Shown here piece by piece: positions 11,347 to 48,524 of a DNA stretch of 64,000 nt. This DNA comes from Patescibacteria group bacterium (GTDB taxonomy: Bacteria > Patescibacteriota > Microgenomatia > UBA8517). The stretch lies in contig DATDRP010000003.1 of NCBI GenBank assembly GCA_035291665.1, forward strand, positions 212,549 through 276,548, in the 5' to 3' direction. The translations under genes were made by a program, and so were the position numbers. Position 1 is the first letter of the stretch. Each line of letters begins with the position of its first letter. The notes beneath the pieces are model-generated. The model was not told the DNA's origin, made no database searches, and worked only from the letters and a program-made list of their open reading frames with translations.

Positions 11347-11508
11347 TTGTATAGTGTATCAAATTTTTGGATACATTTAGTGCCAATAGGTTATAACACT
11401 GAGCTTATCGAAGTGCTCCCCCTGGTTGGCGTATTTAAGAATGACATCCTCCCCCGAGTCTGACTCGGTGGTATTCTTGAAATCTGTTATAAATGATAAA
11501 CTGAATCC

Positions 11509-14870: not shown

Positions 14871-14911
14871 AATATTTTAACATCGAACTTGGTCAGATTA
14901 AGATAATTCAG

Positions 14912-15063
14912 CTCCTCCGGTAGGATTCCCTTCGATTACACTCAGGGTAAACTTCTCATCCTACCGAACGCTTCTACTCGCCATGCTTGCACTGAGTGAA
15001 GCGTAGTGAGCCGAAGGGCTCCCCCGGTAAGTCTACTTTTGATTACAAAAGATCTTGGCCGGT
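14912..15063. repeat. degenerate tRNA-Asn 3'-end-like direct repeats (two adjacent copies) with shared flank GCTTGCACTGAG...GCCGAAG
   Basis: ctcctccggtaggattcccttcga (14912-) and gctcccccggtaagtctacttttgattacaaaagatcttggccggt (15018-15063) resemble the genuine tRNA-Asn 3' end ctcctcggctaggatttgaacc at 18859. Confidence 0.6.
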
Positions 15064-15209
15064 TTCGCAAATTAAACTTCGTTAAATTTGCTCCCGCTAA
15101 TAAATACATTCAGGACACTTGACTATTCACAATTCCAAGACTACAAACCTCGATTTCTTCAGTCCTATCTATAATAACTTAATAAATACTAATTAGGTTA
15201 TTCAAACAG

Positions 15210-15470
15210 TTACCCTATTTTTTTAACCAAATTTACCTTATGATTAGCCCAATCAAATTCATAAGTCTTAAGTTGTTCGTCTCCTAACACCTCGGGTAAT
15301 CCCATATCAGTATCTCCATCTTTTTGGTGAATATGTGTCTCTCGTGTGACTCTACCGTCAGTCCATTTTGAGAAAACATCACTTCTTAATTTCCCGTCCA
15401 CAGCAGAAACATAAGTGTCAATGGCTTGTTCGGATATTGTGGCTTTAGGAGCTTCATTTTGCTCAGCCAT
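15210..15470 (-). CDS. hypothetical small protein
   Basis: 86-aa ORF. No family. Confidence 0.3.
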   Translation of the reverse strand: MAEQNEAPKATISEQAIDTYVSAVDGKLRSDVFSKWTDGRVTRETHIHQKDGDTDMGLPEVLGDEQLKTYEFDWANHKVNLVKKIG

Positions 15471-15650
15471 TTTTAATCACCTCCTTCAAAATTCTCATAA
15501 CTTTTCTTGCCGTATTATACCCTGTGGTCTACAAAATAGTAAAATACGAACAAAAAGTAATGAAAAAAGTAAAGAAAAATTTGTTGCAACCACCATTCAG
15601 GCAAAAAGATTTAATATCCGTCAGCTCCTTTATCGGTTTTTGTCATAAAT

Positions 15651-15980
15651 ATGATATTAAGACGGCAAATGAGGATTACACAGGATAAATATGACACGCT
15701 ACTAGATAAATATAAGAAAATTAAGGCAGATTTGTTGGTACAAATGGAACAACACAGCAGTGCTGACAAAAACTACTTTGTTAAGGCCAGTAAGTTATTG
15801 GAATTGGCTCGTAAAGCATACGAATTATTTGAAAAAGTGGATGCTTACCAAAAAAGAGAGCTTCTGTTTTACTTATTTCAGAACTCTCAAATGGACGGGG
15901 AAAAGCTCGTTCCTAGCCTCAAAATGCAATTTGATGTCATACTAGAAGCCAATAAAACAAAAGATTGGCTCCCCCGGTAG
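15651..15980 (+). CDS. hypothetical protein
   Basis: 109-aa ORF, helical and charged. No family. Confidence 0.3.
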   Translation: MILRRQMRITQDKYDTLLDKYKKIKADLLVQMEQHSSADKNYFVKASKLLELARKAYELFEKVDAYQKRELLFYLFQNSQMDGEKLVPSLKMQFDVILEANKTKDWLPR

Positions 15981-16013
15981 GTCTACTTTTGATTACAAAA
16001 GATCTTGGCCGGT
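15968..16013. repeat. 46-bp repeat copy (gctcccccggtaggtctacttttgattacaaaagatcttggccggt)
   Basis: Near-identical to 15018-15063 and 18353-18398. Contains perfect hairpin CTTTTG-atta-CAAAAG. Confidence 0.7.
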
Positions 16014-16595
16014 GGAATTTATTTCCTTTTGCCTGCCTTGAGCTTGTTTACACTGAGTTTACCGAATTGCCGAAGAGCTCTCTTATTGGGAGGAATTTAG
16101 AACTATAGCACTTCATATTTAGTTATAGATTTGAGTAAGTTTTGTACATCCACACGAGAATTATCACATTCAAGATTAATATAGCGGAATTAAATATTAG
16201 TATTACTTTGGGGGAAAACTTGGATTTTATTACAAGATAGGAATAACCGGAATAAGTTAGCAAATGAAATAAGATATTGGAAATAGTTCCCCAAGAATTA
16301 ATACTATATTCAAGTTCTCCCGATAAACAGATATTAAATGGAAAGGGAACAAATAAGTCATATTTTGGAGCACACATACAGCTTACGCACATAAAACGAA
16401 CTTCAAAAAATGAACTTATTAAGCTAAAAACTGTATAAACAACAATCTCCATTACTAGAGGTATAAAAAGAATACGTATTTGTAAGGGTGAAAGCTTCGT
16501 AATTATTTTCAATAATTCAGTATTTATTATCAGGTCAGAGAAGTCAATAAAATGGTCCAAGTTGAAATTCGCTTATTGGGAAGAATTTAGAATAT

Positions 16596-17138
16596 TTACC
16601 TCCATCTAATTTTCAGACTTTTAAAACTTTTACGGTCTTTGTGATTCCATTGACCTACCATAATATGTACATGTGGATCTGGTTTTCCCTGATTATTATT
16701 TTCAATCCATCCATTTAAACCAACTACAGCTATGGGTTGTCCTACTTCAACAAGATCTCCAACTTTTAATACAAGCTTTTCTCCTTTTTCATTTATATAT
16801 GGATCCAGATGACCCATCTCAACAAATTCGGGTCTTTCACCTTCTCCAACCCGAATATTCACATAATTCAATTTATCTTTAAAATCATCTGTTGGTCCGC
16901 ACTCGATGTTGTTCATTACAACATAGTCTACAATTCCTGAAATCGGAGCATAAACAACAGTTTTTTCAGTATCAGGGTGTGGTACAGATATATCTAAAGC
17001 ATGCTTGAAACTACCAGTGTGAGCAGAAGATGAGAGAAAAATATATTTTTGCAGTTTAACCGGTAGGTCATACTTATATTTACTGTAACCAAGGAGAGGC
17101 ATGACTTCTTTGACATTTAAGGTTTCATTTTCTGCCAT
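16596..17138 (-). CDS. M23/LytM-family peptidase domain protein
   Basis: PISGIVDYV ... VGQPIAVVGLNGW ... DPHVHIMV resembles the M23 HxH zinc site. Confidence 0.55.
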   Translation of the reverse strand: MAENETLNVKEVMPLLGYSKYKYDLPVKLQKYIFLSSSAHTGSFKHALDISVPHPDTEKTVVYAPISGIVDYVVMNNIECGPTDDFKDKLNYVNIRVGEGERPEFVEMGHLDPYINEKGEKLVLKVGDLVEVGQPIAVVGLNGWIENNNQGKPDPHVHIMVGQWNHKDRKSFKSLKIRWR

Positions 17139-17247
17139 AACTGAAGTATATCAAAAGTTCAAATCCTACTTAGCGTTGATCATTTTGATGCAGTAATTTG
17201 AAACTAAAATCACTTGCTCTCTCTAATAGACGGAGTTCGAACCTATT

Positions 17248-18303
17248 TTATTTCATTGGTGAATATTTGAAATTCACATCACGTTGTTCGGCAGGGATTT
17301 GATAACCGTCGGTTTCGAAAGGATAAGCAAGAACTCCGCTGGGAAAGGTCGCATCAGGACTATAACTTTGCCAATAGAAGAACGAGCCAGGTTGAACAAG
17401 GTGAAGATGTGTGTCTCCATTTTGAATGTTCGGATTTACTGATATGTCCGGTACAGCAAAGTAGAAGTCAGCAAAGGAGTGTGTACCAACATTACCCGGC
17501 GCCGGTACCGTGCCAGCAAATCCAATTAGTTCCCCGCGTTTTACCTTATATCCAATTAGAGCACCATATGAAGTTGCGTTACCCGTGGGTGTAACTTCAT
17601 AGTTCCCATCCCAAAATATTTGGTATCCCTGAGCTGGCGGAGCCATGAGGTCGTTACTTACCTCTTGAGTGTGTCCGGTCAATAGAGGTGAGGTTAATAA
17701 ATGATATACAGTAAAATACACTCCCGGCCAATCAGGACTTGCAGACTTGAAGAATAATTTCACATCATCGGAATGTGCAGATGTTTTCCCCGACACAATC
17801 TGAGTACTGGTATCCCGAAAGCCAACTAACACCATATCGAACGGTGCTAGTACCGGCGAACCGTCTTTATAAGCTTCAAAGCCCATACCAGGCTTATGCT
17901 GGTAAGGTTTCCAACCTGGATGGCCGCCAACCTTTGGACCCAGTGTAATCATGTCAGGGTCAGCACCCGTACCATATAACTCCGTATGGGTATTAATGCC
18001 ATTCATACTGGGTGGTGGTGAAGTTATCGCAGATGCGCTTGTTTTAGGCACGCCTTGAATAGGTATTGTAGTTGGTGTAGGGGCGGAAGTGGGGGTCAGT
18101 GTAGAGGTCGGGGTTGTGGCAACATTTTTTGTTAACAGATACACGCCTGCTCCAACAGTGATCAAAAATATGAATATGATTATGATTAAAATCAATTTCC
18201 ATTTATTTTTCGGGGTAGAAATCTTGCTAATTAATTGCTGTAAGTTGGGTTGAATTATTGGAGTTTCATTTTTAATCGATTGACTTGGGATATTTGAATC
18301 CAT
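17248..18303 (-). CDS. secreted Pro/Thr-rich M23-like protein
   Basis: TM anchor, PT-rich linker, C-terminal ELIGFAGTVPAPGNVGTHSF...THLHLV. Confidence 0.5.
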   Translation of the reverse strand: MDSNIPSQSIKNETPIIQPNLQQLISKISTPKNKWKLILIIIIFIFLITVGAGVYLLTKNVATTPTSTLTPTSAPTPTTIPIQGVPKTSASAITSPPPSMNGINTHTELYGTGADPDMITLGPKVGGHPGWKPYQHKPGMGFEAYKDGSPVLAPFDMVLVGFRDTSTQIVSGKTSAHSDDVKLFFKSASPDWPGVYFTVYHLLTSPLLTGHTQEVSNDLMAPPAQGYQIFWDGNYEVTPTGNATSYGALIGYKVKRGELIGFAGTVPAPGNVGTHSFADFYFAVPDISVNPNIQNGDTHLHLVQPGSFFYWQSYSPDATFPSGVLAYPFETDGYQIPAEQRDVNFKYSPMK

Positions 18304-18352
18304 AAATAAATCATTCCAGAAAGCAATAGGGAAGTCAATTTGAGGCTAATTT

Positions 18353-18468
18353 GCTCCCCCGGTAAGTCTACTTTTGATTACAAAAGATCTTGGCCGGTGT
18401 CGCAAATTTCTCTGCGATAAATTTACTCCCCCGGTAGGATTCCCTTCAGCTTCGTTCAGGGTAAACTC
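18353..18468. repeat. 46-bp repeat copy plus second tRNA-Asn-3'-end-like copy
   Basis: gctcccccggtaagtctacttttgattacaaaagatcttggccggt (18353-18398), then ctcccccggtaggattcccttcagc (18426-). Confidence 0.65.
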
Positions 18469-18769
18469 ACAACAGGTTCTCACCAGCCAGAAGAGCTTCA
18501 ACAAACTCAGTATATGTATTATATCCCAACTTGCCTTCTACTAACATTTGCTTCTTTGCTCTTGACCAACCTTTAATTTGTTTTTCTCTAATAGCTGCCA
18601 AATGTTCACCGGGATATTTTTCAGCATAAATAAGTTTCAAATCAGAAAATTTTTTGGTAAAAAAAGAGACCTTTGATTTATGTTGTTTTATTCTGTTTAC
18701 AATATCAGGGGTTATACCAATATAAAAAGTTTTTTGGTCGCAAAGAAGCATATAAACATACCATGACAC
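18467..18769 (-). CDS. GIY-YIG nuclease family protein (UPF0213/YhbQ-like)
   Basis: WYVYMLLCDQKTFYIGITPDIVNRIKQH matches the GIY-x10-YIG motif. ~100 aa. Confidence 0.7.
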   Translation of the reverse strand: MSWYVYMLLCDQKTFYIGITPDIVNRIKQHKSKVSFFTKKFSDLKLIYAEKYPGEHLAAIREKQIKGWSRAKKQMLVEGKLGYNTYTEFVEALLAGENLL

Positions 18770-18859
18770 TTATTCTTTTCCATAAAATAACCTGCACTGA
18801 GCCCTTCAGTTTCATTCAGGACTGTGCAACTGGTGCTTGCACTGAGCTTGCCGAAGTGC

Positions 18860-18930
18860 TCCTCGGCTAGGATTTGAACCTAGAACCTTCTCGTTAACAG
18901 CGAGCCGCTCTACCGTTGAGCTACCGAGGA
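18860..18930 (-). tRNA. tRNA-Asn (anticodon GTT)
   Basis: Manual fold of the reverse complement: acceptor tcctcgg/ccgagga, D arm gctc-aacggta-gagc, anticodon loop cuGUUaa, T arm ctagg-ttcaaat-cctag. Confidence 0.75.
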
Positions 18931-19085
18931 ATGTTTGAAATCGCATGCTATTATATCAACTGCCTCTGTTCTTTTCCATATAATATCATCCAAATTATGC
19001 AGCATTAACATTCGTTGGGGTCGTTTTTGAAAATCCGACATATGAAAATAATTTACTAACTTATAATTATAGGATATAATAATGT

Positions 19086-21799: not shown

Positions 21800-22801
21800 A
21801 TGAATAAATTTAACAACATTGCAATAAGCCTTACTTTAATCCTAATTTCTTCATTGTTTATTTATTCGTTCATCAAATTTCCAAAAGTTGCATCTTCAGT
21901 CGGAAGCGGTGTTGTTATTAACGAAATTGCATGGAGCGGGACAACTGCCGATACCAACGATGAATGGATTGAGTTGTTCAACAACTCAGGAACAGAAGTT
22001 GATTTAACAGGCTGGACTCTGAATGCTACTGACGGGACACCGAGTATAACTCTTTCCGGAACGATCCCCACAGGGGGATATTTTTTACTTGAAAGAACTG
22101 ACGACAACGCGGTTAAAGATGTTGCTGCAAATCAGTTTTTTACGGGTGCACTCGGAAACGGGGGTGAGGTTCTCGAACTCAGAAATGCAAGCGCCGAACT
22201 CGAAGATTCGGCCAATGCTAACGGAGATGTTTGGCCGGCGGGATCAATAACTCCCATCCGGTCAATGGAAAGAGTTGATCCGCTTCTTCCCGACACAGAT
22301 GGGAACTGGGCAACTAATGATGGGCTGACAATTAATGGAAGCGATTCAGCAGACGGACCGATTCTTGGAACCCCCAAGGATCAAAATAGCATTATCGGAG
22401 CAACCCCAACACCGACCACCCAACCCAGTCCGACTGATGTACCCACACCTACCGATGAACCAACTCCGACTCTGGAGCCCACACCCACCAGCGAACCAAC
22501 ACCAACCGAAGTACCGACCTCAACTCCGGTCCCTACTGTTGAACCTACTGCAGTACCAACCGAGATTCCGACACCCACTCCCACAGAGGAACCCTCACCA
22601 ACGGGAGAACCGTCGGTAACTCCGACAGAAATTCCAACACCGACCGAGTCGCCTTCCCCCACTCCGGAACCAACGCCCGTTAGCGGAATCTTTTGGACAA
22701 TCGGATTCGGAAGCAACAAAACCACCTGCAGACCGGTCTACCAAACTTTCCACTTCGGATTCATGCATTTCAGAATCTTCACAATATCCTGCTCGAGATA
22801 G
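21800..22801 (+). CDS. lamin-tail-domain (LTD) secreted protein with long Pro/Thr linker
   Basis: VINEIAWSGT...DEWIELFN LTD signature. ~90-aa (E/T)PTPT repeat. Non-descript C-terminus, possible frameshift. Confidence 0.55.
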   Translation: MNKFNNIAISLTLILISSLFIYSFIKFPKVASSVGSGVVINEIAWSGTTADTNDEWIELFNNSGTEVDLTGWTLNATDGTPSITLSGTIPTGGYFLLERTDDNAVKDVAANQFFTGALGNGGEVLELRNASAELEDSANANGDVWPAGSITPIRSMERVDPLLPDTDGNWATNDGLTINGSDSADGPILGTPKDQNSIIGATPTPTTQPSPTDVPTPTDEPTPTLEPTPTSEPTPTEVPTSTPVPTVEPTAVPTEIPTPTPTEEPSPTGEPSVTPTEIPTPTESPSPTPEPTPVSGIFWTIGFGSNKTTCRPVYQTFHFGFMHFRIFTISCSR

Positions 22802-25602: not shown

Positions 25603-26143
25603 CAAGAGAGGTATTAGAAAAAGTTAAAAATTAAACTGAAGCTATGCGTCTCTCTATTTTTTTCACTTTAGTTTGTAATTTATCAAAATCTTCAACTGTG
25701 GGAGAGTCGTCTTCCAAATTAGCCAACTGCAAACCTATCTTATCCAAACGATTTGTCAGTTTTGTATCGACCTTATCAATCTTTTCATCGACATTTTTTA
25801 ATGTCTTTACGAATTTTTGTTTGGCCGTCAAGAATAGCTTGGAGAACTTTATTGTCTGACATAACTACACTATGCCATAAGAAATTATCTTTTAAAGACT
25901 CATTTTATGCAAAATTATTAATAAGCAGAAACCCCTTCCCCGCGCTCAGATGTCACATTATAATTTCATAAATGAAATGGCGTGACTTATGCTGTAGAAA
26001 TTACATTTCAGTCCTATTTCAAAATATTATTTTGTATGCAGCAATGGACAAGGCAGAAAAATTACCACAGGAACCTTGAATACAGTTGAGGGAATATCGG
26101 AAGCGAGTTGTGTAAATTAGATTTTTGATATACTGCCTTTGAA

Positions 26144-42290: not shown

Positions 42291-42905
42291 CTAACTCATC
42301 TTTACTTCTAATAAGGGTTTTCCGTTATCGTCTAGGACCTTTAATATTCCTGTTTGTGTATCCAAGCTGACATCCTTGCCTTCTCCACTACTAAATACTT
42401 TGACATTTTTTATCCCTTTCTTTTTCAAGTATTCAGCTATAGCTTTATTCCAACTTTCTCGATCTCCTTCCAATTCTTGCACGTATGGATCTAAACTGCT
42501 TGTGTCACCTAAGACATAAGGTAGGGCACTTTTGGATAGGTCTGGGACTGCTTCCAATAATTGATCTATAAGTTCTTCATGTCTGTTTCCCCATAAATCC
42601 ACAGCATTTATATGGATAACAGCTCCATTTTTACCAGCATTTTCATACATAGCGATAACTCTACAGGCACCACCCCATGCCTCTAATACAGGACCATCCC
42701 TACCTATAACAAAGGTATCTGCTTTTGCGTAAAGACGGCCATTTTCTCGACTGTGTCCTTCTTGCGTTTTGCCATCTTGTAGAAATGCGGACTCCCCCCT
42801 ATTACGGTTTATTCTCCTTACAGTTTTTTCCTCTGAGTGTGTTTCCATAAGTATTTTAGTTCTAACTTCCTCAATTGTGCGGTGAGGGAGGGTCTCCTTC
42901 GTCAA
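42291..42905 (-). CDS. hypothetical protein (cassette gene between 75-bp direct repeats)
   Basis: 204-aa ORF with a GC-richer, hydrophilic composition unlike its neighbours. No family recognised. Confidence 0.45.
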   Translation of the reverse strand: MTKETLPHRTIEEVRTKILMETHSEEKTVRRINRNRGESAFLQDGKTQEGHSRENGRLYAKADTFVIGRDGPVLEAWGGACRVIAMYENAGKNGAVIHINAVDLWGNRHEELIDQLLEAVPDLSKSALPYVLGDTSSLDPYVQELEGDRESWNKAIAEYLKKKGIKNVKVFSSGEGKDVSLDTQTGILKVLDDNGKPLLEVKMS

Positions 42906-42981
42906 GACTTCGAAGACTAAGGATTCTCAAGTTTTAGTATTCTAATCAAAGCAGCCTGCCGTCCCGTAGCATTGGCGTAGG

Positions 42982-43004
42982 GCGGTGAGGGAGGGATTCG
43001 AACG
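42982..43004 (-). other. partial duplicate of tRNA-Ser(GGA) 3' end (att-like)
   Basis: ggcggtgagggagggattcgaac is identical to the 3' end of the tRNA at 43102-43125. Confidence 0.7.
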
Positions 43005-43025: not shown

Positions 43026-43100
43026 ATGCGTAATCGAAAAACCTGCCTCAACGCGAGTGCAACGACCAGAGCGTCAAACGCACCAGCCGAGTTTGACTCG
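43026..43100. repeat. 75-bp direct repeat, copy 2
   Basis: See copy 1. Abuts the tRNA-Ser 3' end. Confidence 0.8.
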
Positions 43101-43101
43101 G

Positions 43102-43188
43102 CGGTGAGGGAGGGATTCGAACCCTCGATGGCGTTGCCGCCATACACGCTTTCCAAGCGAGCCGATTAAACCGCTCTCGCACCTCACC
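43102..43188 (-). tRNA. tRNA-Ser (anticodon GGA), class II with long variable arm
   Basis: Reverse complement: acceptor ggtgagg/cctcacc, anticodon loop uuGGAaa, variable stem atggcg-gcaa-cgccat, T arm gaggg-ttcgaat-ccctc. 87 nt. Confidence 0.7.
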
Positions 43189-44875: not shown

Positions 44876-44965
44876 GGAGGTGTGCCAGAGCGGACGATCG
44901 GGCTTGTTTCGAAAACAAGTATCTCATGTTTAATGGGATCAGAGGTTCGAATCCTCTCACCTCCG
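44876..44965 (+). tRNA. tRNA-Ser (anticodon CGA)
   Basis: Acceptor ggaggtg/cacctcc, anticodon stem cttgt/acaag with loop uuCGAaa, long variable arm, T arm agagg-ttcgaat-cctct. Confidence 0.75.
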
Positions 44966-45024
44966 CTCTCTTCGCTCACTTCGGTGTAAGGGTTCGATAT
45001 TGCGAATCAAGGATTAAAACTGTG

Positions 45025-45047
45025 CAAGGCGAATCTTCTCACATCCG
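45025..45047 (+). repeat. degenerate copy of tRNA-Ser(CGA) 3' end (second copy at 46181-46204)
   Basis: aaggcgaatcttctcacatccg and aaggcgaatcttctcacctccgcc vs the tRNA 3' end ttcgaatcctctcacctccg. Confidence 0.65.
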
Positions 45048-45281
45048 CAGATTGGAACAATTCTCGGGTTTTAAGAGTATGTCATACGACTGTTGAGTGA
45101 AGCTCCAAACAAGCTTTTTGTCCTTAACCATCACGCTCTAACCGACTTTTTCAACCGCTTTGCGTTTTGATATTAAATCACCACTTAAAATCAATTCCCG
45201 AGCTTGGAAAGCCGTAGTTATAAAATCTTCGGCTAGTTCCAACCAATAACGTTGAACATAACCCGTCATCAGTTTTTGAGC

Positions 45282-46133
45282 CTACCTTAAACCCTCTACG
45301 AAGCGTCTATCACCATAATATCGTGCATATGTGGCAAGGCAAAGCCTCGCATAGTCAAAATATGAGGTTTGCCTTTGGAAACCCGTTGGATAGCCATTAG
45401 CTCTTACAAGGTTCATTCCGGCAGCCCAAGCGTTTCTTTCATGAAATAAGTGAATTGTTTTGTCTACTCCATGACTTCGTGCTTCTAGACGAGTGAGTGC
45501 ATATCTTGTTGCTTCAAAAGGTGGTTGTTGTTCCCGAATACCGTACGGGAGTGCGTGGGCTAATTCGTTACCATAGGTTTGCACCATTGCAACAGGTGGT
45601 AAATCCCTTCCCTTTAGTGATATGGCGGCTTTAAGTAATCGCGTATCAAGGTCGTTGTGGAATATCAATACATGACCTAACTCATGATAAGTGGCGGACA
45701 TTCTAGTCATGTTTTCCTTTAACTCATCTACTTGTAGGCCAATGACGTAAAATGGATACTCTCTTCCACTCATGAGCGGGTCATGCGCATAAAACCCGTT
45801 TGTTGTACCAGTAAATAAAACCGGTTTTCCCTTTGAAGTTGTAAGTGATAAGTTAGATTTTCTAATATTACCTTTTTTCCTAACTTGTTCTAATTTTCCC
45901 GTATAAACCTGAATATGGCTAGACATGCCAAATCGTTCGGGCATGTTATACGTTCCAACTTGAGAAAAGGTAAGCCTTGCGTTTGGCCAGACAATTTGTG
46001 CCGGGAGCGGTATATGAGCAGCTTGGTCAATATCAATTTCCGTAAAGCTACTTTCAATCCCACCTTCAATTCGTGCCTCTTGTGGACGGGGTCTTTCATA
46101 ACCACTAGTACCGCTCTCAATTCCCATAATCAC
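45282..46133 (-). CDS. putative HExxH zinc metallopeptidase (cassette gene)
   Basis: YHELGHVLIFHND motif. Bounded by the two tRNA-3'-end-like repeats. Confidence 0.5.
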   Translation of the reverse strand: MIMGIESGTSGYERPRPQEARIEGGIESSFTEIDIDQAAHIPLPAQIVWPNARLTFSQVGTYNMPERFGMSSHIQVYTGKLEQVRKKGNIRKSNLSLTTSKGKPVLFTGTTNGFYAHDPLMSGREYPFYVIGLQVDELKENMTRMSATYHELGHVLIFHNDLDTRLLKAAISLKGRDLPPVAMVQTYGNELAHALPYGIREQQPPFEATRYALTRLEARSHGVDKTIHLFHERNAWAAGMNLVRANGYPTGFQRQTSYFDYARLCLATYARYYGDRRFVEGLR

Positions 46134-46180: not shown

Positions 46181-46204
46181 AAGGCGAATCTTCTCACCTC
46201 CGCC
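46181..46204 (+). repeat. degenerate copy of tRNA-Ser(CGA) 3' end, distal
   Basis: aaggcgaatcttctcacctccgcc, followed by the GACTCAGACTCGG palindrome-like motif. Confidence 0.65.
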
Positions 46205-46254: not shown

Positions 46255-46935
46255 TTACGCAGCAACGGTCAATCCCCAAACTGTTTTAATACCATTTTCT
46301 TTCAGAACTTTAGCGCATTCTGAAATTGTTGAACCGGTTGTCAGGACATCATCAAATATAATTACAGGTTTTTTGTCATTCGCAAGTTTTTTGTATTTCA
46401 TATTGAATCCAAATGCACCCTTAATGTTGTGAACGCGTTCTTTCCCTTTTAATTCCGCCTGATGCTTGCCTGCCTTTTTACGAAGCAGTACATCCGGAAG
46501 CAGTTTCCATCCGAATTCCAAACTAATCGCTTTGCAAAGCTCGAGGGACTGATTATAGCCTCTCCAGTTATACCGGGAGCGGTTAAGAGGTACAACTGTA
46601 ATGTATGCTTTCTGACCCCGAAAAAGTTTCGTTCGAAGAATTGCTAGGCAATATTTCTTTCCCAACTCTTGCGAAACTTCTCTTACAAAATTATATTTCA
46701 GCCTGAGGAGTGCACTTCTTACAGCCCCATCATAACTCCAGGGGGAATAGGCAAACTCGGGAGAATGATTTGTTATGCACTTTGCATGTGTTAACCCATC
46801 AATTGATTTTTTCTTACATCTGAGGCAAAAAAGCTTTGCGGGTGGAACTTTTGACAAACATCGTGCACATAAATAATTACCTTTTATACCGCATTCAAGG
46901 CAGTTCGTAGGAAAAAGTATATCAAACACACCCAT
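46255..46935 (-). CDS. comF: ComF family protein (phosphoribosyltransferase-type, competence)
   Basis: N-terminal double CxxC zinc finger. C-terminal PRTase motif VIIFDDVLTTGSTI. Confidence 0.75.
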   Translation of the reverse strand: MGVFDILFPTNCLECGIKGNYLCARCLSKVPPAKLFCLRCKKKSIDGLTHAKCITNHSPEFAYSPWSYDGAVRSALLRLKYNFVREVSQELGKKYCLAILRTKLFRGQKAYITVVPLNRSRYNWRGYNQSLELCKAISLEFGWKLLPDVLLRKKAGKHQAELKGKERVHNIKGAFGFNMKYKKLANDKKPVIIFDDVLTTGSTISECAKVLKENGIKTVWGLTVAA

Positions 46936-47576: not shown

Positions 47577-47974
47577 GGGGACGACCGGTTTCGACGGGAA
47601 AGCACCTTAAAAAACTGCAAGCCGAGTTTAATTCACACTCGCTAATAATGGATTAACAAATAAACGCTGATAACGAAAGTTACAGTCCAGAAGCAATAGC
47701 TTCAACTTTGCTCGGTACTAACCAAGCCAATTGGGCATTTGCTTAAACACTGGTGTCGTTTGAAAGGTTCTCAATCGTTTCAAAACGGCATAAACCTATT
47801 GAGATAAGCCAACAGCCGTTGACTGCAAGCTGTAGGTCGAAAAATATTCAGTCTTACTTGAAAGAAGGTCGTTAGTAATCTAACTTTCAAGAAAATATAA
47901 AAATACTAACTAAGCTTGTAAGAAAAGTTTTTTATTTACTTTTTCGGACGAGGGTTCGATTCCCTCCGTCTCCA
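47577..47974 (+). ncRNA. ssrA: tmRNA (ssrA)
   Basis: 5' GGGGACGACCGGTTTCGACGGG. 3' GGACGAGGGTTCGATTCCCTCCGTCTCCA paired with the 5' end. Internal tag ORF ...ANWAFA-stop. Confidence 0.9.
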
Positions 47975-47983
47975 CATATAAAA

Positions 47984-48012: not shown

Positions 48013-48128
48013 TGCTGAAAACCAAAGGAGGGATGAGAATTTATTCGCTCACTAGATTTGCGGCTTTGAAATCTTTAGATGAAAAATAAAGCAAACCTAG
48101 TGATATGAAATTTGTCTGAATTTCATAT

Positions 48129-48146
48129 TCCCTCCGTCTCCACCAA
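48129..48146 (+). repeat. duplicate of tmRNA 3' end (ttccctccgtctccacca)
   Basis: 18-nt identity with 47960-47976. This copy carries a full CCA. Confidence 0.7.
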
Positions 48147-48239
48147 GTCGAACTTGGTTTCGCCGAGTCAAAGCGAAAGCAAGGTTGACGCAGGTAGTCG
48201 AGTTTGACTCGACACCTTCTTTTTGTATATATTTTGTTC

Positions 48240-48524
48240 ATGAACAAAACGTCAGACGTTTTGTTAAAATTCTACGTTTATACACTTCTCTCACTAAAGG
48301 ATAAAAAATTTTATACTGGTTACACTACCGACTTGAAAATTCGGCTTACTCAACATTCAAAAGGTTTGGTCAAGTCCACAAAGTTAAGAAGGCCTTTCAA
48401 ACTAATTCATTACGAATATTTTATAAACGAGGAAGATGCAATGTCCCGAGAGCGCTTTCTAAAAAGTGGTTTTGGAAGAAAACAATTAAAAAACGCATTA
48501 AAGAGAACTTTGAGAAATATTTAA
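48240..48524 (+). CDS. GIY-YIG nuclease family protein (UPF0213-like)
   Basis: FYVYTLLSLKDKKFYTGYTTDLKIRLTQH matches the GIY-YIG motif. Start taken at the internal Met. Confidence 0.65.
   Translation: MNKTSDVLLKFYVYTLLSLKDKKFYTGYTTDLKIRLTQHSKGLVKSTKLRRPFKLIHYEYFINEEDAMSRERFLKSGFGRKQLKNALKRTLRNI

Follow-up and report, generated by a model that had tools for sequence, protein, structure and literature searches.

The repeated copies of the 3' end of a tRNA-Asn gene in a candidate-phyla-radiation bacterium are insertion footprints, and the one next to the tRNA comes from a compact GIY-YIG nuclease element of which we found no published description. In many candidate-phyla-radiation bacteria this element sits directly after a tRNA gene, followed by a duplicate of that tRNA's last 18 bases or so. 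We analysed a 64,000-nucleotide stretch of a Patescibacteria group bacterium (GCA_035291665.1, contig DATDRP010000003.1, positions 212,549 to 276,548), hereafter the window. Loci compared from other genomes are denoted by L and a number.

An array of tRNA-Asn 3' end copies

A sequence-only reading of the window had described degenerate direct copies of the tRNA-Asn 3' end at 14912, 15018, 15968, 18353 and 18426, three of them forming a near-identical 46-bp unit with a hairpin, and had interpreted them as att-like footprints of successive integration events, while noting that no integrase remains. The observation itself is confirmed. As tRNA-Asn(gtt) lies on the minus strand, downstream corresponds to lower coordinates, and all copies are in one orientation.

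The 46-nt unit occurs three times, at 15018, 15968 and 18353, with 0-1 mismatches, while no shuffled sequence produced a match and no other copy exists in the 64-kb window. Two of these copies extend to 78 nt at 91 % identity. The motif tgcactgag...gccgaagNgctc, previously taken as the flank of the tRNA, recurs at 14985, 16046 and 18835, each time abutting a tRNA-3'-like end, and corresponds to the conserved left end of the element described below. We found additional tRNA-3'-like copies at 17216-17243, 16077-16103, 16569-16592 and 11415-11441, so that the array spans about 7.5 kb rather than 4 kb. Other tRNAs and the tmRNA in the window also carry downstream copies of their own 3' ends.

To address whether the repeats are dispersed irrespective of tRNA-Asn, which would have refuted the earlier interpretation, we searched the window and found them only in this array. 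In another genome (L022), the 46-nt unit again lies 3.4 and 4.3 kb downstream of a tRNA-Asn in the same orientation. The features of the array are listed in the table.

Features of the tRNA-Asn array (window coordinates; LE, left end; RE, right end)
Coordinates	Strand	Feature	Support
18858..18930	-	Intact tRNA-Asn(gtt), last base C74 at 18858; promoter-like site at 18950-18978	ARAGORN; Rfam tRNA, 68.2 bits; promoter scan
18835..18857	-	LE of the GIY-YIG element, ACTTCGGCAAGCTCAGTGCAAGC, starting directly after C74	22/22 match to the core found upstream of the GIY ORF in other loci
18791..18820	-	Extra hairpin-like insert (CCTGAATGAAACTGAAGGG) plus a repeated half of LE, between LE and the start codon	Same insert in L010
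18467..18769	-	GIY-YIG nuclease ORF, 100 aa, GTG start, minimal Slx1-like/UPF0213 type; C-terminal coding region (18491-18517) is an inverted LE-like copy	Pfam PF01541, 1.9e-16; profile match to PDB 1zg2, 2.8e-11; alignment with invariant Y, G, R, H, E
18443..18466	-	RE, GTTTACCCTGAACGAAGCTGAAGG, the inverted repeat of LE	LE/RE similarity over 27 loci
18425..18442	-	Degenerate copy of tRNA bases 57-74 (GAATCCTACCGGGGGAGT, 13/18 identical) at the position of the target-site duplication	Exact counterparts in 37 other loci
18353..18424	-	72-nt miniature insert (U78): variable hairpin, 46-nt core with CTTTTG-taat-CAAAAG, 18-nt tRNA-3'-like tail	Absent at the homologous junction in L012
17216..18352	-	Single-gene cassette: conserved leader, 351-aa membrane-anchored protein (17248-18303), 3' tRNA-like site GGTTCGAACTCCGTCTATTAGAGAGAGC (17216-17243)	Same leader and a 3' site in L105, L106 and L108/L109; leader shared by L012; protein homologs at 79-88 % identity
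16569..17215	-	Cassette with a 180-aa protein (16596-17138; weak sub-threshold M23 hit), ending in site TTCTAAATTCTTCCCAATAAGCGA (16569-16592); promoter region holds an inverted 12-mer of the tRNA T-loop (17157-17168)	Repeat and profile searches
16077..16568	-	Cassette with a 145-aa hydrophobic ORF (16123-16560), ending in a 92 %-identical copy of the previous site (16077-16103)	Repeat search (family D8)
15968..16076	-	ORF-less derivative: degenerate LE (16046-16076), spacer, 46-nt core (15986-16012), 18-nt tRNA-3'-like tail (15968-15985)	Repeat search
15018..15095	-	Second copy of the 78-nt miniature insert	91 % identical to the unit at 18353-18430
14929..15017	-	Internally deleted, MITE-like GIY element: LE with a loop insertion (14985-15017), remnant of the end of the GIY ORF including GGATGAGAAG (14952-14961), RE (14929-14951)	Comparison with the stop regions of full elements
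14911..14928	-	Copy of tRNA bases 57-74 (GAATCCTACCGGAGGAGC, 15/18 identical) flanking the deleted element	Alignment to the tRNA
11397..11441	-	Most distal relic found: tRNA-3'-like site (11415-11441) followed by a truncated LE (11397-11414), ACTTCGATAAGCTCAGTG + TTATAACC	Same truncated form in L062

The GIY-YIG assignment made earlier is solid, whereas the M23-like label given to two of the proteins is only weakly supported. The 180-aa protein hits Peptidase_M23 below the curated cut-off (E 6.4e-4, 20.3 bits against 28.7). The 351-aa protein has no Pfam hit of its own, seven of 29 of its homologs give weak M23 hits (best E 8.9e-4), and its AlphaFold model was unusable with a mean pLDDT of 49.5. 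No recombinase domain was found in any ORF between 10.9 and 18.9 kb.

A GIY-YIG unit bounded by inverted repeats at eight tRNA types

The earlier interpretation is partly supported: successive insertion at the tRNA-Asn 3' end is upheld, but the GIY-YIG gene is not cargo of a decayed integrase island. It is the single gene of a self-contained unit of about 430 bp with the order tRNA C74, LE, GIY ORF, RE and copy of tRNA bases 57-74.

To examine this unit beyond the window, we compared 80 other species-level genomes encoding relatives of the protein. Of these, 40 have a tRNA ending 42-104 nt upstream on the same strand and abutting the same left end, with the types Gln 11, Glu 10, Asn 8, Ser 4, His 3, Tyr 2, Arg 1 and Lys 1. 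Four more have a tRNA-Asn interrupted by a group I intron. In 37 of the 40, an exact repeat of 16 nt or more of that genome's own tRNA 3' end lies at or just after the GIY stop (35 of 16-20 nt with a mode of 18, and two of 43 nt). It starts 15-18 nt before the last tRNA base (17 nt in 24 of the 37) and ends at the last tRNA base +/-1-2 nt. The sequence of this repeat differs between genomes, so it is made from the recipient and not carried by the element.

LE is 22/22 identical in 33 of the 80 loci and within 2 mismatches in 59 of 80, even though the proteins are only 50-80 % identical. LE compared with the reverse complement of RE scores 15.6 of 24, against 10.1 +/- 1.2 for shuffles, with 26 of 27 pairs exceeding the mean plus 2 sd. 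Terminal inverted repeats plus a target duplication of about 18 bp are hallmarks of transposons.

Tandem elements were also found: L088 has two copies 100 % identical over 324 bp and L044 has a full copy plus a truncated one, although tandem identical copies could also arise by unequal recombination between the 18-bp repeats. A relative with the orthologous neighbour gene (L103) has a tRNA-Asn with no LE element after it, and L012 lacks the 72-nt miniature insert at a precisely homologous junction. The only promoter-like site upstream of the GIY gene is that of the tRNA, with no terminator between them.

Interpretation and rival explanations

Taken together, we favor, with fairly good confidence, an insertion array that has grown from the 3' end of tRNA-Asn. 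The sequence comparisons establish the anatomy: next to the tRNA sits an intact member of a compact family of mobile elements, 292-414 bp in other genomes (median about 362 bp), each with a conserved 23-bp left end, one minimal GIY-YIG gene of about 95-100 aa and an inverted-repeat right end. The element lies directly after C74, always in the tRNA's orientation, and is followed by a duplicate of bases about 57-74, from the T-loop to C74, which leaves the tRNA intact. Further out lie ORF-less derivatives, one an internally deleted copy and the others miniature units containing the 46-bp repeat, the derivative repeat clusters being at 14929-15017 and 15986-16076, together with single-gene cassettes ending in 24-28-nt sites that mimic a tRNA 3' end. 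How the element moves and is expressed is, on the other hand, our inference. We hypothesize that the nuclease recognises the conserved T-arm DNA of tRNA genes and that insertion goes through nicks staggered by about 18 bp, one in the T-loop on one strand and one after C74 on the other, with gap repair creating the duplication. The gene would have no promoter of its own, being transcribed from the tRNA promoter and its mRNA released by tRNA 3' processing. Each new insertion would push older material outward, where it decays, producing the serial degenerate copies. The gene cassettes were probably added by a separate recombinase acting in trans at the same site, an inference that fits the earlier integration idea in spirit.

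Precedents exist for such targeting. T4 SegB, a GIY-YIG homing endonuclease, recognises the T-psi-C stem-loop motif of tRNA genes (PMC2330249), and casposons insert at a tRNA 3' end with a 15-bp duplication and need the T-psi-C segment (PMC5137440). Several points weigh against this explanation. In the window the flanking duplicate matches the present tRNA at only 13 of 18 bases, so the target-duplication argument rests on relatives and not on this copy, and no empty and filled allele pair was found within one species. GIY-YIG enzymes are known as nucleases, not strand-transfer enzymes, and the protein has no DNA-binding domain beyond the core of about 95 aa. GIY proteins cluster partly by tRNA type (25 of 41 nearest neighbours share the type), and much of the spread may therefore be within one tRNA type. 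Finally, the miniature 46-bp units lack recognisable LE/RE ends and their link to the GIY element rests on position and architecture only.

An alternative explanation, which we consider unlikely, is that integrase-bearing islands integrated one after another into tRNA-Asn, each bringing its own copy of the tRNA 3' end, and later lost their integrases, leaving the GIY-YIG gene and the others as cargo. Serial partial tRNA copies pushed outward from the tRNA are what this model predicts, as described for tycheposons (bioRxiv 10.1101/2020.12.28.424599). In L011 a large serine recombinase gene overlaps the tRNA-Asn 3' end and an island lies between the tRNA and the GIY unit. Many loci have hybrid-looking sites before LE that share only the last 6-9 nt with the tRNA end, and the 351-aa gene behaves as a cassette with its own site. 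Besides the absence of a detectable recombinase domain between 10.9 and 18.9 kb, this model does not explain a unit of about 360 bp with inverted terminal repeats and a single nuclease gene at eight tRNA types, nor the exact copies of the local tRNA end, since an element-borne att site would have one fixed sequence.

Equally unlikely is a free-standing homing endonuclease gene that cuts tRNA genes lacking it and spreads only by double-strand-break repair from an occupied allele, with the repeats as by-products. The GIY-YIG domain, the SegB precedent in a tRNA cluster and the partial clustering by tRNA type are consistent with this view, and the resemblance of the window's duplicate to tRNA-Asn ends of other species such as L078 and L074 could reflect co-conversion of donor flanks. 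Homing, however, creates neither target duplications nor terminal inverted repeats, both of which are present with fixed geometry. It also needs homology on both sides, while the right flanks are unrelated between species, and the protein lacks the DNA-binding domains of I-TevI and Seg enzymes.

Least likely, the repeats would be functional RNA or DNA signals, such as tRNA-like processing or terminator modules reused between genes and kept similar by selection or gene conversion; the units do contain hairpins, one tRNA-like 12-mer lies in a promoter region, LE is far more conserved than neutral DNA and the GIY gene appears to depend on tRNA read-through, but predicted folds are no better than shuffles for most units (z between -0.9 and +0.8), there is no Rfam match, and neither the occurrence at eight tRNA types with locally matching duplicates nor the tandem identical and internally deleted copies are explained.

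Relation to described systems

Casposons such as that of Aciduliprofundum boonei (PMC5137440) share terminal inverted repeats, a fixed-length target duplication at the 3' end of a tRNA gene (15 bp there, about 18 bp here), a target including the T-psi-C region and mini-elements flanked by the repeats. They are large, encode a Cas1 integrase and a PolB polymerase, and their duplication overlaps the tRNA by only 5 bp, while the element here is about 0.36-0.43 kb, encodes only a GIY-YIG nuclease of about 100 aa and duplicates tRNA bases 57-74. SegB and other free-standing GIY-YIG homing endonuclease genes (PMC2330249) likewise lie among or next to tRNA genes. SegB, however, is a phage protein that spreads by homing with no inverted repeats and no target duplication, whereas the protein here is of the minimal Slx1-like type and lies in cellular CPR genomes, bounded by inverted repeats and a duplication.

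Tycheposons and other tRNA-seeded genomic islands (bioRxiv 10.1101/2020.12.28.424599) show repeated integration at the tRNA-proximal end, older elements pushed outward and scattered partial tRNA copies and degenerate remnants, with tmRNA also a target. They carry tyrosine or serine recombinases and an element-borne att site specific to one tRNA, while here no recombinase was found in the array and the proximal unit makes its duplicate from the recipient tRNA. Among eukaryotic elements, Dada DNA transposons insert specifically in tRNA and snRNA genes (PMC3706591) and Penelope-like retroelements use a GIY-YIG endonuclease for chromosomal integration (PMC8557442). Dada uses a DDE-type transposase and Penelope-like elements need a reverse transcriptase, neither of which is encoded here.

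By profile match the protein belongs to the same family as the bacterial Slx1-like/UPF0213 proteins (PDB 1zg2, 1ywl; PMC1564403), which are also single-domain minimal GIY-YIG proteins. The 2006 survey of this family treats it as conserved and vertically inherited, cites an earlier prediction that its prokaryotic members act in double-strand-break repair, and mentions no tRNA linkage or mobility. Here, by contrast, a large subfamily is bounded by inverted repeats and inserted in tRNA genes.

Repeats downstream of tRNA-Asn and the bounded GIY-YIG unit

The sequence-only reading had proposed that tRNA-Asn is followed by serial copies of its own 3' end, and this observation is real. The tRNA lies on the minus strand, so its downstream side runs to lower coordinates. 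All copies share the orientation of the tRNA, and the array spans about 7.5 kb. The 46-nt unit occurs at 15018, 15968 and 18353 with 0-1 mismatches, no shuffle produced a match, and there is no other copy in the 64-kb window. Two of these copies share 78 nt at 91 % identity. The motif that had been taken for the flank of the tRNA recurs at 14985, 16046 and 18835, each time abutting a tRNA-3'-like end. Coordinates of all features are collected in the table.

Coordinates of features in the window and in loci from other genomes (L numbers); LE, left end; RE, right end
Feature	Locus	Coordinates	Strand	Remarks
tRNA-Asn(gtt)	window	18858-18930	-	ends at C74 (18858)
LE	window	18857-18835	-	ACTTCGGCAAGCTCAGTGCAAGC
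Small extra hairpin	window		-	between LE and the GIY-YIG ORF
GIY-YIG ORF	window	18769-18467	-	100 aa; Pfam 1.9e-16
RE	window	18466-18443	-	GTTTACCCTGAACGAAGCTGAAGG; an inverted LE
Copy of tRNA bases 57-74	window	18442-18425	-	GAATCCTACCGGGGGAGT; degenerate, 13/18 identical
72-78-nt unit	window	18424-18353	-	variable hairpin, then 46-nt core and tail
351-aa gene	window	17248-18303	-	no Pfam domain
tRNA-3'-like copy	window	17216-17243	-	
tRNA-3'-like copy	window	16569-16592	-	
tRNA-3'-like copy	window	16077-16103	-	
Hybrid derivative	window	16076-15968	-	degenerate LE, spacer, 46-nt core, 18-nt tRNA-like tail
72-78-nt unit	window	15095-15018	-	variable hairpin, then the same 46-nt core and tail
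Internally deleted element	window	15017-14929	-	LE with loop insertion, 33 nt including the end of the GIY ORF (GGATGAGAAG), RE
Copy of tRNA bases 57-74	window	14911-14928	-	15/18 identical
Most distal tRNA-3'-like copy	window	11415-11441	-	followed by a truncated flank motif
tRNA-Ser(gga)	window	43100-43188	-	
Copy of tRNA-Ser(gga) 3' end	window	42981-43003		exact, 23 nt
Copy of tRNA-Ser(gga) 3' end	window	42878-42897		degenerate; preceded by an RE-like hairpin
tRNA-Ser(cga)	window	44876-44966	+	
Copy of tRNA-Ser(cga) 3' end	window	45029-45048		3 mismatches of 20
283-aa ORF	window	45282-46133	-	no Pfam hit
Copy of tRNA-Ser(cga) 3' end	window	46184-46203		2 mismatches of 20
tmRNA	window	47577-47975		
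Copy of tmRNA 3' end	window	48127-48143		exact, 17 nt
Second GIY-YIG gene	window	48204-48524	+	different subfamily; Pfam 5.3e-15
Extended -10-like motif	window	17145-17154, 18950-18959, 26125-26134, 46916-46925 and others		TTGATATA(A/C)T
Local G+C peak	window	22000-22800		0.49-0.55 against about 0.37 background
Region with GIY-YIG gene inserted 5' of tRNA-Asn	L103	9395-9800		gene of 97 aa; tRNA bases 1-20 (TCCCCGGTAGCTCAGTGGTA) duplicated upstream of it
Group I intron in tRNA-Asn	L028	5686-5878		
Group I intron in tRNA-Asn	L029	5687-5894		
Group I intron in tRNA-Asn	L032	5434-5628		
Group I intron in tRNA-Asn	L066	5488-5866		
Region with large serine recombinase ORF	L011	581-2164		ORF of 516 aa; overlaps the tRNA-Asn 3' end on the opposite strand
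Region with large serine recombinase ORF	L010	928-2513		

In this Patescibacteria (CPR) metagenome-assembled genome the GIY-YIG gene is the core of a bounded unit. The C-terminal coding segment of its protein (consensus CTEFAEALL) is a further inverted LE-like copy. The residues Y10, G12, R20, H24 and E56 are invariant in 25 homologs, so the conserved Tyr, Gly, Arg and Glu of the catalytic domain are all present, and only this domain matches. The protein matches solved UPF0213 proteins over the whole domain (PDB 1zg2 at E 2.8e-11 over profile positions 5-96; 1ywl at 5.8e-8), and its closest solved relatives are single-domain proteins of 96-107 aa. The protein belongs to the minimal Slx1-like/UPF0213 GIY-YIG family.

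The only promoter-like site upstream of the ORF is that of the tRNA, and there is no terminator between them. A recurrent extended -10-like motif sits a few bases upstream of start codons and upstream of the tRNA, which suggests short-leader or leaderless transcripts in this organism. The tRNA genes in the window (18858, 43100, 44838 and 44966) appear to encode C74 but not the full CCA end, and the duplicates attributed to the GIY element include that C.

The same unit at tRNA genes in other genomes

The protein has hundreds of relatives at 60-89 % identity in CPR lineages. To examine their surroundings, 80 loci from different species genomes were collected with a profile of the protein. In 40 of these a tRNA gene ends 42-104 nt upstream on the same strand, the types being Gln 11, Glu 10, Asn 8, Ser 4, His 3, Tyr 2, Arg 1 and Lys 1. 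Four more loci (L028, L029, L032 and L066) have a tRNA-Asn that ARAGORN missed, because a group I intron (Rfam RF00028, 61-87 bits) interrupts it just upstream of the 3' exon that abuts the GIY element. These introns explain some of the apparently missing tRNAs. In the window, a group I intron carrying the GIY gene was rejected because the tRNA is uninterrupted and the ORF lies after C74.

In most of the 40 loci the last tRNA base is followed immediately by ACTTCGG, while in a few LE begins one or two bases further in, overlapping the terminal bases of the tRNA. In 37 of the 40, an exact repeat of 16 nt or more of that genome's own tRNA 3' end lies at or just after the stop codon (35 of 16-20 nt, mode 18; two of 43 nt). 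The repeat starts 15-18 nt before the last tRNA base (17 nt in 24 of the 37) and ends at the last tRNA base +/-1-2 nt, which by tRNA numbering runs from about G57 of the T-loop to C74. We estimate that a chance exact 16-mer in these small search spaces is of order 1e-5 per locus. From C74 to the duplicate the element measures 292-414 bp, with a median of about 362.

LE is 22/22 identical in 33 loci and within 2 mismatches in 59, and is thus much more conserved than the protein. LE and reverse-complemented RE score 15.6 of 24, against 10.1 +/- 1.2 for shuffles. Of 27 pairs 26 exceed the shuffled mean plus 2 sd, and the best pairs match at 19-20 of 24.

The duplicated sequence differs between genomes and tRNA types and matches the local tRNA. 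It is therefore generated from the recipient, as in a target-site duplication, and not carried as a fixed att site. In the window itself the match is only 13/18, so this copy is old, or its flanks were exchanged. Related proteins that are 78 % identical, at the loci L038 and L062, sit at tRNA-Asn genes whose 3' ends differ at four positions, and each has an exact local duplicate, which is hard to reconcile with one ancient vertical insertion. Tandem elements also occur: two copies in locus L088 are 100 % identical over 324 bp, and locus L044 has a full copy plus a truncated copy. No pair of filled and empty sites was found within a species, in a comparison that did not include whole genomes.

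Derivatives, gene cassettes and related sites

Further out in the array, the internally deleted element keeps both ends, has no ORF and is followed by a 15/18 copy of bases 57-74, as in a MITE; the target copy upstream of it is masked by a later insert. At the junction homologous to the tRNA-proximal 72-nt unit, locus L012 from another genome goes straight from the duplicate into the leader of the 351-aa gene, and the unit is therefore a clean insertion. An exact scan for the 46-nt core found nothing in species genomes and three metagenome contigs, which come from other organisms and share only the unit. The core occurs at about 90-94 % identity in otherwise unrelated contigs, and in one of the comparison loci, L022, two copies lie 3.4 and 4.3 kb downstream of a tRNA-Asn in the same orientation.

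The protein-coding genes between these relics look like single-gene cassettes, each ending in a 24-28-nt site that mimics a tRNA 3' end (GGTTC(G/T)AA...GAGC). The 351-aa gene has the same leader (AATTAGCCTCAnATTGACTTCC...ATG) in the window and in L012. Among other loci that carry this gene, L105 and L108/L109 have that leader and also a 3' site of this kind, while L106 has the 3' site but a different upstream region. The gene lies next to tRNA-Asn in L105 and L106, whereas in L108/L109 it lies between two such sites with no tRNA nearby. It appears to travel as a single-gene cassette of ~1.15 kb. The 145-aa ORF is flanked by two 92 %-identical copies of such a site. Homologs of the PIN-domain and 122-aa proteins lie just downstream of GIY units at other tRNAs. 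A scan of the 42 full-length GIY loci (12 kb or longer) for long GTTC[TG]AA...GAGC sites found only two in the orientation of the tRNA and one on the opposite strand, all downstream of the GIY gene. That cassette system is therefore lineage-restricted.

The 351-aa protein belongs to a family of more than 400 proteins with no Pfam domain, of which at least 120 are 49-100 % identical to it. Source names include Woesebacteria, Magasanikbacteria and Azambacteria MAGs, and also MAGs labelled Dehalococcoidales, Bacteroidetes and Planctomycetota. The M23-like label given to two of the genes on sequence alone is weak. The predicted structure of the 351-aa protein reached a mean pLDDT of only 49.5, a profile comparison with lysostaphin aligned only 22 columns, and the 351-aa and 180-aa proteins are not detectably related to each other.

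Copies of 3' ends are also found at other RNA genes in the window. The copies after tRNA-Ser(gga) are separated by spacers of about 100-120 bp with no ORF, and those after tRNA-Ser(cga) enclose the 283-aa ORF. The second GIY-YIG gene lies right after the copy of the tmRNA 3' end, and a 151-bp insert with a terminator-like hairpin separates the tmRNA from that copy; no right-hand duplicate was seen. The local G+C peak lies inside the gene for a protein with a lamin-tail (LTD) domain.

Interpretation and comparison with known systems

What the analysis establishes is a set of bounded units with inverted ends, a fixed insertion point and orientation, a locally derived duplication of ~18 bp, an intact tRNA upstream of the element, and ORF-less derivatives. 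Beyond this we infer that the nuclease recognises the conserved T-arm DNA, that insertion proceeds through nicks staggered by about 18 bp followed by gap repair, that expression depends on the tRNA promoter and on tRNA 3' processing, and that arrays grow at the tRNA-proximal end. Both element termini carry CTTCGG, which resembles the TTCGA of the T-loop; this fits one enzyme acting on both the ends and the target, but it is only a resemblance. Any role of the protein in DNA joining would be an inference, since GIY-YIG enzymes are known as nucleases. The only ORF of the element is a GIY-YIG nuclease, and no transposase of a known class (DDE, HUH, serine/tyrosine recombinase, Cas1) is encoded.

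The general idea that the repeats record successive integration at the tRNA stands: they are insertion footprints, but the agent for the tRNA-proximal unit is a compact GIY-YIG element rather than a lost integrase island. Direct repeats of the tRNA 3' segment, as at the distal boundary of such an island, are present at 18425, 18353, 15968, 15018, 14911 and 11415, but no recombinase Pfam domain was found in ORFs between 10.9 and 18.9 kb. In L103, a relative whose neighbour gene is 61 % identical, different genes follow tRNA-Asn, no LE element follows it, and a different GIY-YIG gene is inserted on its 5' side at the orthologous site; L012 lacks the 72-nt insert, and no relative close enough for a clean empty site was found. 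In L011, a locus with an older GIY element, a large serine recombinase gene overlaps the tRNA-Asn 3' end and about 3.9 kb of small genes separates the tRNA from that element. In many loci without an adjacent tRNA, LE is preceded by a site that shares only its last 6-9 nt with the tRNA-type duplicate, which is what a later recombinase-mediated insertion between the tRNA and LE would leave.

Homing by double-strand-break repair may contribute to spread within one tRNA type, since 25 of 41 nearest neighbours share the tRNA type. Homing does not explain the duplications or the inverted ends, and the protein lacks a separate DNA-binding domain of the kind attached to the catalytic domain in I-TevI/Seg enzymes. 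An integron-type array was also considered, but no integron integrase was found and, judged by eye only, the sites do not fit attC core motifs. LE was not found in viral contigs, so there is no support for a phage vector. Reading the repeats as a structured RNA family was dropped, because Rfam gave nothing in the region except the tRNA at gathering and at permissive thresholds, and predicted folds of the 46-nt, 78-nt and LE/RE units were mostly no better than shuffles.

The 2006 survey of the GIY-YIG superfamily treats the Slx1 family as conserved and vertically inherited, cites an earlier prediction that the prokaryotic members act in double-strand-break repair, and does not mention tRNA linkage (PMC1564403). 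The GIY-YIG homing endonuclease SegB of T4 recognises the T-psi-C motif of tRNA genes (PMC2330249) and has neither inverted repeats nor a duplication. Casposons have inverted repeats and a 15-bp duplication at a tRNA 3' end, with a T-psi-C requirement (PMC5137440); they use Cas1, and no Cas1 integrase or PolB domain was found in the region. Tycheposons show the same outward growth of tRNA-seeded islands and carry recombinases. Full-text literature searches, which included the LE sequence and its translated forms but did not extend to subscription journals, found no description of a GIY-YIG element with inverted ends and a target duplication in tRNA genes. We file the feature with tRNA-targeting mobile DNA, with a substantial chance that it represents a new element class.

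It is quite possible, though tentative, that minimal Slx1-like GIY-YIG proteins, long filed as stand-alone repair nucleases, are in a large subfamily the mobility enzyme of an unrecognised class of prokaryotic mobile element. Such a class would be defined by ~360-bp units with 23-bp inverted ends, specific insertion into tRNA (and probably tmRNA) genes after C74, duplication of bases 57-74, expression from the tRNA promoter, and miniature non-autonomous derivatives. Sister families would insert at the tRNA 5' side, as in L103. Together with single-gene cassettes carrying tRNA-3'-mimic sites, they would build integron-like cassette arrays at tRNA genes in CPR bacteria.

If the inference holds, it adds a mobile-element type whose only protein is a GIY-YIG nuclease of ~100 aa, which would be one of the smallest autonomous elements known and would have a built-in way to insert into essential single-copy tRNA genes without harming them. 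A tiny nuclease with a fixed, conserved DNA target and an 18-bp staggered footprint would be directly testable in vitro. The finding would reassign a widespread protein family now regarded as of unknown function or as acting in repair (UPF0213/Slx1-like). It would explain why small GIY-YIG genes and odd partial tRNA copies sit beside tRNA and tmRNA genes in CPR genomes, and would account for assembly breaks at such sites. It would also point to tRNA 3' ends as growth points for variable gene arrays in these reduced genomes.
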